Below, in pieces: positions 2,455 to 10,880 of a DNA stretch of 14,397 nucleotides (position 1 is its first letter; each line of letters starts with the position of its first letter). Source of the stretch: a virus (lineage: Duplodnaviria; Heunggongvirae; Uroviricota; Caudoviricetes); the IMG/VR virus record IMGVR_UViG_2563366907_000012; one strand, written 5' to 3'. A program made the translations under genes and the position numbers. The notes beneath the pieces were generated by a model. That model saw nothing but the letters and a program-made list of their open reading frames with translations, had not been told where the DNA came from and did no database searches.

Positions 2455-2610
2455 TTACTCCTCAGGTTCGTAAGCTGTGAAGACAGCGACCTCCGTCTGG
2501 CCGGTTCGGAGTCGTACCTCGCAGAGGTCTTTCCTCGTTACCAGTGCCGTCACTATGACGGTTAAACAGATGACGATCAGGGCGATTAACATCGCCTTTT
2601 GCTGCTTCAT
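2455..2610 (-). CDS. hokD: Hok-family type I toxin (HokD/RelF-like membrane peptide)
   Basis: Hand-translated as MKQQKAMLIALIVICLTVIVTALVTRKDLCEVRLRTGQTEVAVFTAYEPEE (51 aa), near-identical to recalled HokD. Below the ORF-track length cutoff. Confidence 0.9.
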   Translation of the reverse strand: MKQQKAMLIALIVICLTVIVTALVTRKDLCEVRLRTGQTEVAVFTAYEPEE

Positions 2611-2666
2611 AGCCTGCTTCTCCTTGACCTTTCGGTCCGTAAGAGGCTAATCTCTATGTGTCGCAT
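2607..2666 (-). CDS. Short leader ORF (mok-like) translationally coupled to hok
   Basis: ATG at 2666..2664 encodes MRHIEISLLRTERSRRSRL; its TGA overlaps the hok ATG (ATGA). The start lies in an inverted repeat TCTATG-CGACA-CATAGA. Much shorter than plasmid R1 mok, so tentative. Confidence 0.35.
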   Translation of the reverse strand: MRHIEISLLRTERSRRSRL

Positions 2667-2720
2667 AGATATGGCCTCAGATTAATGTTAAGCGTCTTGC
2701 AGGACGCGTAATGTTAACTG
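2624..2720 (+). ncRNA. Putative Sok-like antisense RNA with promoter, antisense to the hok mRNA leader
   Basis: TTGACC at 2624..2629 and TAATCT about 18 bp downstream on the plus strand, inside the hok 5' region and pointing away. Downstream hairpin GCGTC-TTGCAG-GACGC (2692..2707) is flanked by direct repeats TAATGTTAA (2683..2691, 2709..2717). Boundaries approximate. Confidence 0.3.
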
Positions 2721-2868
2721 GGGCTTTTCTCTATCTGCCTTTTGGTGTTCATGCCTGAGACAGATAGCCTCAAGCACCCGCAGTCATTCTACTTAACTAA
2801 GATTTCCCCGCAAACCGTTTTTGTCCGGCACAGTAAATATCCAACTAAACCAATGGCGTTCGCTGTAT

Positions 2869-3048
2869 TTACCGCCAGTATTCAATGCACATGACCGCCA
2901 TGAACACCCCTAAAAAAAGGGCATTTATATGTCCAAACATTAATATCAAAACATCAACTTTTTCCATATACCTTGCTGTGAAGATGATGGGCATACATGA
3001 TGCGAACAACCAGAACGCAACAAACAAAAACTGCAATGCGTTTTTCAT
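2869..3048 (-). CDS. Small hydrophobic (two predicted TM segments) protein
   Basis: The 72-aa ORF is trimmed to the internal ATG at 3048, which has GGGGG 4 nt upstream. Product MKNALQFLFVAFWLFASCMPIIF... is strongly hydrophobic. Confidence 0.45.
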   Translation of the reverse strand: MKNALQFLFVAFWLFASCMPIIFTARYMEKVDVLILMFGHINALFLGVFMAVMCIEYWR

Positions 3049-3218
3049 TATTCCCCCTACAATCAATGTGCAATAACATTTAAACACACCTCAATTTAGC
3101 CGGACATATAAATATCTAAACCAGAAAAAATCACTTACATAGCGTTACAAACTCTTTAGTCTAAATATTCATCGTAAAACATTCCCCATACTTATCAGCC
3201 CGTTCTGCGCCAGGTAGC

Positions 3219-3533
3219 TCATTGCCTTATCTGGGAATCTGTAATCAGGTTTCCGGATGCTGGTGGATTTTCGCGTTTTAGTTGTTCATAAAAGTGCACA
3301 GCTTTAACCAGTTCTTCTGATGTCACCGGAACTGGCGGGGCAGCGAATAAGGCCTGAATTTCATAGTTCGGCCTGTCGTTGCAATCCTCTTTTGTCGGTA
3401 CATATTTCCAGTCACCAACCCACAGATTCTCCTGAAAGTCCGTAACGCCTTTTTTCACGTAGCGATATCGCCATGCAACTGGTTTTGCCTGCCCTGCCGT
3501 TTCATGCCCTTCCTGATAATTAATCTCGCTCAT
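3219..3533 (-). CDS. Hypothetical phage protein (104 aa) with shared MSEINYQ N-terminal module
   Basis: ATG overlaps the stop of the upstream acidic ORF (ATGA). First 7 codons and flanking nucleotides are near-identical to the start of the ORF at 4932. Confidence 0.55.
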   Translation of the reverse strand: MSEINYQEGHETAGQAKPVAWRYRYVKKGVTDFQENLWVGDWKYVPTKEDCNDRPNYEIQALFAAPPVPVTSEELVKAVHFYEQLKRENPPASGNLITDSQIRQ

Positions 3534-3706
3534 TCATCGCCCCACTCATCACAATATGCTTCGACCGGAGTTTTTCCTGCTTCATAATCATCACGCCATG
3601 CTTCAGCATCAGCAGCACTGCCACCACGTAACTCTGCATAGTCCATTAACAGTTCATGCCATGCTTCAAAACTGACGTTGTATTTAGTTGAACCAAAATC
3701 AGCCAT
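3530..3706 (-). CDS. Small highly acidic protein (58 aa)
   Basis: Hand-translated as MADFGSTKYNVSFEAWHELLMDYAELRGGSAADAEAWRDDYEAGKTPVEAYCDEWGDE. Start overlaps the stop of the preceding ORF (ATGGCTGA) and its stop overlaps the next start. Below the ORF-track cutoff. Confidence 0.5.
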   Translation of the reverse strand: MADFGSTKYNVSFEAWHELLMDYAELRGGSAADAEAWRDDYEAGKTPVEAYCDEWGDE

Positions 3707-3881
3707 TTTGCTCTTCCTCTTCGTCTTTTATTTCGTGATATGAGTAATTGCAGTAGTTAAAGAAAATATCTTTTGCTTCGTCATGTATTTCATCAGGCGT
3801 CGCATCATCATCCACTTCGAATTCATCCTCGAAATCTCCACCGGCTATTCCCGTTTCAATAATTATTTTAAACTTTCGCAT
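3699..3881 (-). CDS. Small highly acidic protein (60 aa)
   Basis: MRKFKIIIETGIAGGDFEDEFEVDDDATPDEIHDEAKDIFFNYCNYSYHEIKDEEEEQNG, about one third Asp/Glu. AGGAGG lies upstream, separated from the ATG by a hairpin. Confidence 0.55.
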   Translation of the reverse strand: MRKFKIIIETGIAGGDFEDEFEVDDDATPDEIHDEAKDIFFNYCNYSYHEIKDEEEEQNG

Positions 3882-3888
3882 TTAACTA

Positions 3889-3910
3889 CCGCCCTTTCGG
3901 GCGGCCTCCT
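3889..3910 (-). promoter_or_regulatory. Shine-Dalgarno plus GNRA-tetraloop hairpin in the translation initiation region of the 60-aa acidic ORF
   Basis: mRNA reads AGGAGG-CCGCCC-GAAA-GGGCGG-UAGUUAA-AUG: a perfect 6-bp GC stem between SD and start codon. Could also serve as a stabiliser or partial terminator for the upstream gene. Confidence 0.5.
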
Positions 3911-3974
3911 GATGTTCTGAGGGTGCAGAAATCCCTCCGGTTAAGGATTAAATTTTTAACAGAGCTAAATTTAA

Positions 3975-4331
3975 TTATTCAGTTCTGGATTTTGTCGCCC
4001 TGCGTATCCGCGCTTTCGCGTTACGCTCAATCTGAATTAGCTTTTCTATATTTTTTCGCCTTTCCCGCTCCTCCTGACGCAAGAGCCTTACATCATCTGC
4101 CAGTCTGGTTTCTCTTTTCGCCACAGAGAGCATCCAGTCAAATGGTTCCACAACTGCACCGCAGATTTTACAGCGGACCTGACGCTCTTTTTCGTCAACC
4201 CGGACAGAGGCGTGATGACAATATGGTCTTTCCGATGGCTCATAAAGAAAATTAACCTGATTACGAGGGTCATCCTCTTTTACCGGAAATAAAACGATAT
4301 TGCTTAACTCATCCTCTGGTTTTATTTCCAT
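3975..4331 (-). CDS. Hypothetical protein with Cys/His zinc-ribbon-like motif and basic coiled-coil tail (118 aa)
   Basis: Trimmed to the ATG at 4331, which has AAGGAGAGGAG upstream. Contains CHH...CKICG and an Arg/Glu-rich C-terminus. Confidence 0.6.
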   Translation of the reverse strand: MEIKPEDELSNIVLFPVKEDDPRNQVNFLYEPSERPYCHHASVRVDEKERQVRCKICGAVVEPFDWMLSVAKRETRLADDVRLLRQEERERRKNIEKLIQIERNAKARIRRATKSRTE

Positions 4332-4932
4332 GCTCCTCTCCTTTGATGCGAATGCCAGCGACGCGTAATGCGTGTTCCAGGTCAATCAGGTAAAGCCAAC
4401 TGCCATTTTCTTTAGGTATCATGACATGTCGCTCATCTGCATTTATCGGGTGTCCATATCGAAGGTCGTAGCGAGTCGGTAATTGAACTTCCCGCGCTTC
4501 CAGTTCAGCAATACGCTTGCACCCATCAGAGATAACTCCCTCGTAATACTCGCGCTGCTCGTTGAGTTTTGATTTTGCTGCTTCAAGCTCAACGAGCAGC
4601 TTCCCAACCGTAAGCGCAATATCCTCGTTCTCCTGGTCGCGGCGTTTGATGTATTGCTGGTTTCTTTCCTGTTCATCCAGCAGTGCCAGCACGGTAGCCG
4701 GGTTAGCCTCTGCTATGAACTCAGCGTTTGCATAAGCCTGAGCATCTGTTTCAATCAGGCAGTTAACATGACGTTCCGCAATCACGCCACCGGGTTCTCC
4801 TTTCCATTTTTGACAAACAAAAACTCCTGTTAAATTGCCGTGTTGGTTAACAGATGTATGCCCTACGATGTAGCTTCCTTTAGTTGCTTTCTCTGCCTTT
4901 TCACGCAGTACCTGATAGTTAATCTCGCTCAT
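4309..4932 (-). CDS. Ead/Ea22-like coiled-coil prophage protein (tentative family call)
   Basis: Trimmed to MSEINYQ at 4932, overlapping the stop of the upstream small ORF. About 207 aa with a central coiled-coil-like segment. Family assignment is from memory. Confidence 0.55.
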   Translation of the reverse strand: MSEINYQVLREKAEKATKGSYIVGHTSVNQHGNLTGVFVCQKWKGEPGGVIAERHVNCLIETDAQAYANAEFIAEANPATVLALLDEQERNQQYIKRRDQENEDIALTVGKLLVELEAAKSKLNEQREYYEGVISDGCKRIAELEAREVQLPTRYDLRYGHPINADERHVMIPKENGSWLYLIDLEHALRVAGIRIKGEEHGNKTRG

Positions 4933-5107
4933 TTTTCTCTTCATTCCGGTATACAAGAATTACAACGTCACCTCTGCTAATTACGCGAGCTGGATCCCCT
5001 GGTTCCATGCTGTCAATCCCGAAGGCTTCGAAAAATGCATCCATTGCCTTCTGGCGTTGCTCCTGCTTACGGCGTTTATTCCATTTTTGAACAACAGTGA
5101 CAGCCAT
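4919..5107 (-). CDS. Hypothetical small protein (62 aa)
   Basis: Soluble-looking product (KAMDAFFEAFGIDSMEPGD...). Stop overlaps the MSEINYQ start. Competes with an overlapping frame at 4981..5199 that starts GTG behind a GGAGGTG SD and encodes a hydrophobic N-terminus. Confidence 0.4.
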   Translation of the reverse strand: MAVTVVQKWNKRRKQEQRQKAMDAFFEAFGIDSMEPGDPARVISRGDVVILVYRNEEKNERD

Positions 5108-5188
5108 CGTCCGCTGCAGAACATGATGTAGAAATAACCAAGAAGTGCCAGGCCGGTGTTCAGGGCCATATCAATCGTTATCGCCGGG

Positions 5189-6539: not shown

Positions 6540-7286
6540 TTACTTCACAACCCTCATATTGCTGACATTTGGACGCCAGCTATCCCAGTTAAACGTCACC
6601 CATCGACCACCGTTCATGGTCATGCGGTCCATAATCCTCTCACCAAGAAGCGTACTCATTGCGGCATGATTCAGGTTTGTTAACATCCCGACACTGCACA
6701 GTGATGCTGTCCGGCGATCAATTATCTGGTGCAATACCACCTGCTCGTTTTTCGTCTCCCGCTGAACGCCTATTTCATCCAGGACCAGCAAATCAACCCC
6801 GCAAAGCTCCTGTAAAAATTTTTCCCCGGATTTGCCGTTGTCGTAGCTGTCATGCAACACGCTCATGACGTCAGACACGGTGACGATAATCACGCTGCGC
6901 CCCTTCACCATCAGCCGGTTGCCCATCGCCGCTGCAAGGTGATTTTTCCCGGTGCCGGTTTTACCGCTGAACACAAAATTCGTGCACCCGGTCATCAGTT
7001 CGTCAGCTATGGATTTGGCCTGGCTCAGCGCGTATTTTTGCCCGTCGTTCTGCACCTGATAATTTGCAAACGAGCATTTGCTGTGCAGAGGCTGGATGCC
7101 CGAACGATTCAGGATTTTTTCCACCCGCAACTGGCGATTCTGGCGGTTAATCTCCTCGCTGCGTTTTCGTCCTTCAGCAAGTTGCCATTCCCGCCACTCC
7201 TCCACCGTCCGGTACGGTGGAACCGACCCCTGTGGTGCAAGTCTGCGAATACGTTCAAGAACCCCAACTGCCGCAATGTTTTTCAT
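6540..7286 (-). CDS. DnaC/IstB-like AAA+ helicase loader (replication protein)
   Basis: Walker A FSGKTGTGKNHLAAA and Walker B DLLVLDEIG; 248 aa; directly follows the O-like initiator. Confidence 0.85.
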   Translation of the reverse strand: MKNIAAVGVLERIRRLAPQGSVPPYRTVEEWREWQLAEGRKRSEEINRQNRQLRVEKILNRSGIQPLHSKCSFANYQVQNDGQKYALSQAKSIADELMTGCTNFVFSGKTGTGKNHLAAAMGNRLMVKGRSVIIVTVSDVMSVLHDSYDNGKSGEKFLQELCGVDLLVLDEIGVQRETKNEQVVLHQIIDRRTASLCSVGMLTNLNHAAMSTLLGERIMDRMTMNGGRWVTFNWDSWRPNVSNMRVVK

Positions 7287-10827: not shown

Positions 10828-10880
10828 TTTCTGGTGACGTTTGGCGGTATCAGTTTTACTCCGTGACTGCTCTGCCGCCC
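10828..10880 (+). ncRNA. dicF: DicF small regulatory RNA (ftsZ-targeting antisense sRNA)
   Basis: The 53 nt TTTCTGGTGACGTTTGGCGGTATCAGTTTTACTCCGTGACTGCTCTGCCGCCC match the DicF sequence as I recall it, followed by TTTTT, between ydfC and dicB. Confidence 0.85.

Follow-up and report, generated by a model that had tools for sequence, protein, structure and literature searches.

Two adjacent acidic small genes of a lambdoid prophage belong to separate families of mobile-element proteins

Results

The ORF1-ORF2-ORF3 block

We analysed a stretch of phage DNA of 14,397 nucleotides (the window), in which an earlier note had singled out two adjacent, overlapping small reading frames at 3530-3881. Both frames were present on the minus strand, with the 60 and 58 residues described. 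ORF1 (3699-3881, minus strand, 60 amino acids; MRKFKIIIETGIAGGDFEDEFEVDDDATPDEIHDEAKDIFFNYCNYSYHEIKDEEEEQNG) is identical to WP_001224662.1, and ORF2 (3530-3706, minus strand, 58 amino acids; MADFGSTKYNVSFEAWHELLMDYAELRGGSAADAEAWRDDYEAGKTPVEAYCDEWGDE) is identical to WP_000753058.1. The overlap reported before was also found: the two frames share the 8 nucleotides ATGGCTGA at 3699-3706 (minus strand), as read from the sequence, and codons 2-3 of ORF2 contain the stop codon of ORF1. Translation of ORF1 and ORF2 is predicted to be coupled through this overlap. A putative Shine-Dalgarno-like element for ORF2, GAGGAAGAG, lies at 3711-3719 (minus strand) and is made up of the Glu codons that encode the acidic tail of ORF1 (GAAGAGGAAGAG). 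The third gene of the block, ORF3 (3219-3533, minus strand, 104 amino acids; phrog_660, no match in Pfam), is joined to ORF2 by a coupling ATGA overlap, and comes after ORF2 in 75 of 80 close relatives from IMG/VR.

ORF1 cannot extend further upstream, since a TAA stop codon directly abuts its ATG. Six nucleotides upstream of this ATG, RNA fold prediction placed a stable hairpin with a 7-bp stem (GCCGCCC-GAAA-GGGCGGU; 3888-3905, minus strand), which is preceded by GGAGG at 3905-3909 (minus strand). Lacking a T-tract, the hairpin does not qualify as a canonical terminator; it might shorten the distance between the Shine-Dalgarno sequence and the ATG of ORF1, or be a site of processing or pausing. 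A consensus scan of the coding strand called no promoter or terminator near ORF1 and ORF2, and co-transcription with the rightward operon described below would be the simplest reading.

Prophage and operon setting

We identified the window as a Qin/Rac-like lambdoid prophage of E. coli. A region of 801 bp around the block (3200-4000) was 100% identical to many E. coli chromosomes, and Qin/Rac-like lambdoid phages matched the window at ~95% identity in a mosaic pattern. We took the gene map from the RefSeq annotation of one identical E. coli chromosome. On this map, the plus strand carries the leftward operon, with dicB, an exonuclease gene, xis and int. The rightward operon on the minus strand starts with cro, ydaT, and the genes for an O-like helix-turn-helix protein and a P/DnaC-like ATPase, continues with DUF1627, DUF4406, Ead/Ea22 fragments and a gene for a 118-residue protein into ORF1, ORF2 and ORF3, and ends with sok/hokD, a rem-like gene, DUF968/YdfU, RusA and Q. 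Because of this synteny, ORF1 and ORF2 can be placed in what appears to be a nin-like delayed-early accessory stretch, with replication genes on one side and hokD, rusA and Q on the other. The early accessory region proposed before was roughly right, and is now narrowed to the nin-like part of the delayed-early rightward operon. Two RNAs were detected with Rfam: the sok antitoxin RNA (2608-2779, minus strand, 106.7 bits) beside hokD (2455-2610), and the sRNA DicF (10829-10880, plus strand, 76.7 bits) in the leftward operon.

Several other features of the surroundings were recorded. The gap between ORF3 and sok/hokD (2780-3218) is 439 bp long, AT-rich (38.5% GC) and contains no RefSeq gene; a plus-strand ORF ('hornerin') is annotated at roughly the equivalent position in one phage record. 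The 118-residue upstream neighbour of ORF1 (3975-4331, minus strand; phrog_1621) gave a weak zinc-ribbon signal (TFIIB Zn_Ribbon, E 2e-4) that is under the Pfam cut-off. At 4309-5121 (minus strand), RefSeq marks an Ead/Ea22-like ORF, which matched Pfam Ead_Ea22 with an E value of 1.7e-39, and an adjoining DUF4752 fragment as incomplete pseudogenes; such remnants suggest that recombination has left a scar immediately upstream of the ORF1-ORF3 block. The record PP818812.1 ('Actinobacillus phage vB_Apl-pPE4') contains DNA ~93% identical to this lambdoid region, both ORFs included, and Actinobacillus is an unexpected host label for it.

ORF1 and ORF2 are genuine genes

PGAP/RefSeq annotates WP_001224662.1 as 'DUF7167 family protein' and WP_000753058.1 as 'hypothetical protein'. 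Of 5426 complete E. coli genomes, 2674 matched the 801-bp region at least partially, and 1522 matched it with a coverage of at least 80%. Comparison of ORF2 with its 86%-identical IncI2 plasmid copy gave a dN of 0.071 and a dS of 0.755, and comparison of ORF1 with a Klebsiella copy gave a pN of 0.18 and a pS of 0.86, where synonymous sites are saturated. These substitution patterns show that both genes are under purifying selection. In view of their annotation, their prevalence in E. coli, this selection, and families that extend far beyond E. coli, we consider ORF1 and ORF2 to be genuine genes. Although the ORFs are very short, and many database copies are truncated or frameshifted, as would be the case for spurious or decaying frames without function, this reading is refuted for practical purposes by the strength of the purifying selection, the conservation of both families in distant phages and plasmids, and the confident fold predictions described below.

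Acidity is conserved in both proteins

The strong acidity claimed for the two proteins was confirmed by calculation. Asp and Glu make up 33% of ORF1, the one third given in the earlier note, and 26% of ORF2; the pI values are 4.05 and 4.06, and the net charges -15 and -11, respectively. ORF1 and ORF2 are by far the most acidic among the 16 window genes examined, the other 14 having an Asp and Glu content of 10-19% and net charges of -3 to +9. The median net charge was -13 for the DUF7167 family, to which ORF1 belongs, and -10 for the ORF2 family. Fourteen positions were acidic in at least 70% of 55 DUF7167 members, and the ORF2 family keeps its acidity at 9 fixed positions. Acidity by itself is common in small phage proteins; here, position-specific acidity is selected and conserved across both families.

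ORF1 is a full-length member of the DUF7167 family

No family could be named for either protein in the earlier note. Both are in fact catalogued, ORF1 in DUF7167 and phrog_1997 and ORF2 in phrog_519, and the part of the statement that stands is that these families have no assigned function. ORF1 matched Pfam DUF7167 (PF23768) with an E value of 7.9e-15 and 55.1 bits against a gathering cut-off of 24.4, and its residues 2-53 aligned to profile positions 1-60 of 60; the match to phrog_1997 had an E value of 9e-31. The motifs IET, FEV.DDAT and CNY are common to ORF1 and its DUF7167 relatives, and I8, E9, T10, E22, D25, D26, C44 and Y46 are near-invariant among the 55 members. An AF2 model of ORF1 (mean pLDDT 78.7) contained strands at residues 2-9, 16-23 and 46-51 and helices at 29-39 and 53-59, predicting a beta-beta-alpha-beta fold followed by an acidic C-terminal tail that forms a short helix. 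A search with the DUF7167 profile returned 131 clusters, and all those listed were short proteins with no other Pfam domain.

DUF7167 was found in 38 phage and 15 plasmid records, the phages including Klebsiella Guernseyvirinae, Enterococcus Herelleviridae and Phapecoctavirus. The gene occurs in the nin regions of lambdoids of both E. coli and Klebsiella, and in the leftward operon of a P22-like prophage, where it is flanked by Dam and a homologue of DNA polymerase III theta. In Klebsiella Guernseyvirinae, a PD-(D/E)XK/DUF2800 exonuclease gene is located downstream of the DUF7167 gene, which overlaps the start of the exonuclease gene; in Enterococcus Kochikohdavirus, the DUF7167 gene lies downstream of the gene for a 180-residue exonuclease and overlaps its end. 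A further copy is located in the TelA/TerD cluster of Phapecoctavirus-like phages.

ORF2 belongs to a family shared by phages and conjugative plasmids

ORF2 matched phrog_519 with an E value of 2e-22 and 81.1 bits, but only over the C-terminal part of the profile (positions 76-137 of 143); read-through fusions of DUF1187 and ORF2, such as P0143, are the probable source of the profile's N-terminal part. No Pfam match was found for ORF2 or for 28 relatives. The AF2 model of ORF2 (pLDDT 88.3) has helices at residues 13-27, 34-42 and 47-55, and ORF2 is predicted to be a three-helix bundle that exposes conserved aromatic and acidic residues; W37, Y41 and G44 are invariant in the family. When 1.84 billion representative proteins were searched exhaustively with phmmer, only 58 clusters of ORF2 relatives were recovered, most of them standalone proteins of ~50-65 residues.

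The family has members in 198 phage records, among them virulent Ackermannviridae of Salmonella, Klebsiella and Serratia. In Vi01-like phages the homologue lies just downstream of the major capsid gene, and in the T7-like phage phiKDA1 it is flanked by the DNA polymerase and exonuclease genes. Lastavirus ZX1 has a homologue as well. In other contexts, homologues were seen directly 3' of a P2-type GPA replication gene, after an exonuclease-RecT-SSB module, and overlapping an Rv2179c-like exonuclease gene. Less expected was the presence of the family in 561 plasmid records, 516 of them predicted to be conjugative, and ~420 conjugative plasmid records carry a copy 86% identical to ORF2 (IncI2 in the one examined). 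This examined plasmid, NZ_CP034109.1, also carries mcr-1. Its operon consists of a CaiF/GrlA-type regulator, DUF1187, the ORF2 homologue, SPFH, NfeD and type IV secretion/pilus genes, and starts beside repA; the ORF2 homologue is at the head of the transfer operon. Within positions 6793-7177 of this plasmid, DUF1187 is joined to the ORF2 homologue by the identical ATGGCTGA junction. We considered a position in the leading region of the plasmid and found no support for it, because the relaxase gene, which is absent from the PLSDB gene table, would lie beyond mcr-1, at least 15 kb away from the ORF2 homologue. The breadth of the family, over temperate and virulent phages and several hundred conjugative plasmid records, is mildly interesting and makes it a reasonable candidate for experimental screening.

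ORF1 and ORF2 are independent of each other

The earlier note implied that ORF1 and ORF2 act as a pair. The 8-nucleotide overlap is consistent with a two-component unit, for example a heterodimer, a pair of the toxin-antitoxin type, or an inhibitor plus chaperone, and so is the adjacency of the two genes in 159 of 160 IMG/VR loci that carry one of them; on IncI2 plasmids, in addition, ORF2 has the same kind of coupling to a different small gene, DUF1187. However, the 160 loci are nearly identical DNA, and are therefore not independent observations. Outside the E. coli lambdoids, each gene was found without the other in every distant or diverged context examined, so that a functional pair is unsupported. 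The numbers of records are also unequal, with 38 phage and 15 plasmid records for ORF1 against 198 and 561 for ORF2, and a tight complex between two strongly negative proteins is disfavoured.

We also asked if DUF1187 could be a cryptic homologue of DUF7167, since the two have a similar beta-beta-alpha-beta pattern by eye. Alignment with hhalign gave a probability of 0.45%, and the candidate was rejected; the lack of profile similarity is a further point against a two-component unit. Linked by the same ATGGCTGA junction to DUF1187, a gene unlike DUF7167, ORF2 behaves as a separate module, with recombination taking place immediately upstream of the ORF2 start codon. An obligate pair or toxin-antitoxin system, which would be conserved together across lineages, is largely refuted by this distribution, and we regard any form of two-component unit as highly improbable. 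In view of their separation in distant contexts, the unequal counts, the exchange of DUF7167 for DUF1187 and their like charges, ORF1 and ORF2 are independent accessory genes from separate families and not an obligate pair.

Searches for known inhibitors

We compared both proteins with characterised inhibitors and DNA mimics. Scans of Pfam, NCBIfam, PADLOC and PHROGs returned only families without assigned function, and PADLOC gave no match for ORF1, ORF2 or ORF3 at an E value of 1 or better. Searches of PDB sequences with single sequences and with a profile gave nothing significant. Neither protein showed homology to a structural protein or to one of known function, and no link in sequence or fold to a characterised inhibitor or DNA mimic was found for either. 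The DUF7167 and DUF1187 families are absent from the supplements of the EVADES catalogue of anti-defence proteins. Literature searches with DUF7167, DUF1187, the WP accessions, peptide strings and PHROG identifiers found one paper (PMC9409062).

In that paper, AcrHub tools predict members of phrog_519 from Kuttervirus phages to be anti-CRISPR proteins, with a PaCRISPR score of 0.54 against a threshold of 0.5 (PMC9409062). The prediction would make ORF2 an anti-CRISPR protein, but the score is marginal and based on composition. The window contains no helix-turn-helix Aca-like neighbour, the adjacent ORF3 and ORF0 having no such Pfam match, and searches by sequence and fold found no similarity of ORF2 to a solved or validated anti-CRISPR protein. 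We therefore give this reading very little credence.

A pattern common to ORF1 and Gp2 of T7, 'KKF..VE(S/T)...FEV...A', was noticed by eye, and would fit a reading in which ORF1 is a distant relative or analogue of Gp2 that inhibits host RNA polymerase. We aligned 55 DUF7167 sequences with 23 distinct Gp2 sequences from T7-like contigs using hhalign. The same stretch was aligned, over 21 columns, but with a probability of 0.8% and a P value of 0.074. Equally good scores are also obtained with many unrelated folds. The C-terminal motif AEWQYVPAGF.VTRVRP, which includes an Arg that is essential in Gp2, is present in every full-length Gp2 sequence of this set. The motif is absent from DUF7167, Arg included; at its position DUF7167 has NxCNYG(Y/F)HEI, followed by the acidic tail. 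We consequently rejected ORF1 as a member of the Gp2 family, and consider inhibition of RNA polymerase by a Gp2-like route very unlikely.

Discussion

Proposed mode of action

ORF1 and ORF2 are already-catalogued members of two separate families, and lie outside any characterised inhibitor family. Nothing that we found shows DNA mimicry or the blocking of host defences, for which the two proteins had been put forward as candidates. In favour of keeping the candidate label, each protein is small and conserved, consists of a single domain, is carried by mobile elements and has its acidity fixed by position. The AF2 models are compact, confident and devoid of catalytic features, no catalytic motif was seen in either protein, and the genes that adjoin their relatives are in most cases genes of DNA replication, recombination or nucleases. 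Both families are spread over temperate phages, virulent phages and conjugative plasmids.

We tentatively propose, as the best-supported reading although at clearly less than an even chance, that each protein is a stoichiometric binder of a basic, probably nucleic-acid-binding, surface on a host partner. ORF1 and ORF2 would be two independent accessory genes of mobile elements that happen to sit side by side, each encoding a single domain too small to be an enzyme. Each protein may dock its conserved acidic face onto the basic nucleic-acid-binding surface of its partner. Candidates for this partner are host nucleases and proteins of defence, of repair or of the nucleoid. Docking would block or modulate the partner, with consequences at the time when the element replicates or arrives in a new cell. 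The role as binder or inhibitor, the kind of partner and the resemblance to nucleic acid are what we infer for ORF1 and ORF2, and the heterogeneity of the genomic contexts, with no constant neighbour, argues against the proposal.

Strict DNA mimicry of the Ocr, ArdA or gp5.9 kind, in which carboxylates stand in for the phosphate backbone and fill the site where a restriction enzyme or RecBCD binds DNA, is one form of binding to a host partner. The strong negative charge and low pI expected of DNA mimics were found in both proteins and both families, and the acidic positions are conserved. In two phage groups that are not related to each other, the DUF7167 gene immediately adjoins one for an exonuclease, and in phiKDA1 the ORF2 homologue is located between the DNA polymerase and exonuclease genes, where T7 has its RecBCD inhibitor gp5.9. 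On the other hand, comparison with known mimics produced no homology in sequence or fold to any of their families, and we regard this strict form as improbable.

The main alternative to a host partner is a replication or recombination enzyme encoded by the element itself. ORF1 and ORF2 would then be accessory factors of the element's own DNA metabolism, acting as partner or regulator of a phage exonuclease, recombinase or replication protein. The recurrent neighbours fit this: the PD-(D/E)XK/DUF2800, 180-residue and Rv2179c-like exonucleases, and further RecT/ERF, SSB, Dam, the DNA polymerase III theta homologue and P2 GPA, with reading frames that sometimes overlap those of the two families. 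Yet adjacency to such enzymes carries little weight, because phage early regions are rich in them anyway. Moreover, no partner gene is constant, the neighbours in the window themselves have no assigned function, and the 86%-identical ORF2 copy is maintained in the IncI2 transfer operon without any such enzymes. A role of this kind is thus possible, but on the unlikely side.

The binding of host partners can also be framed more widely. Temperate lambdoids, P2-like and T7-like phages, virulent Ackermannviridae and conjugative plasmid records all carry the ORF2 family, which may supply broadly used inhibitors of a host protein, working by imitation of nucleic acid or by acidic and aromatic docking and deployed on cell entry or replication. 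DUF7167 would then be a second, independent inhibitor family built on a Gp2/Dmd-like beta-beta-alpha-beta scaffold. We hold this wider formulation to be rather doubtful. If either protein does inhibit a host nuclease, a defence system or a nucleoid protein, it would represent a new anti-defence family. With one of the two proteins present in about half of complete E. coli genomes and on widespread IncI2 plasmids, some with mcr-1, an inhibitory role, if true, would be relevant to phage therapy and to the spread of plasmids. The useful outcome at present is that ORF1 and ORF2 are genuine, independent of each other and outside the characterised inhibitor families.

Comparison with known systems

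ORF1 and ORF2 are like the DNA mimics T7 Ocr, ArdA, T7 gp5.9 and lambda Gam in being small acidic proteins of mobile elements, and unlike these four in having no match to them in sequence, profile or fold. The genes for T7 gp5.9 and lambda Gam adjoin exonuclease or recombination genes, and so do some relatives of ORF1 and ORF2. From T7 Gp2, the inhibitor of host RNA polymerase, ORF1 differs in profile, C-terminal motif and genomic setting. The scaffold predicted for ORF1 may be that of the small phage inhibitors T4 Dmd, AcrIIC3, AcrIC9 and AcrIE2. Compared with Pfam DUF7167 and phrog_1997, a family with no assigned function or literature, ORF1 is a full-length member and shows no difference. 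The IncI2 member WP_000753050.1 is 86% identical to ORF2 and has the same ATGGCTGA coupling to a small upstream gene, this upstream partner being DUF1187 on the plasmid and DUF7167 in the prophage.
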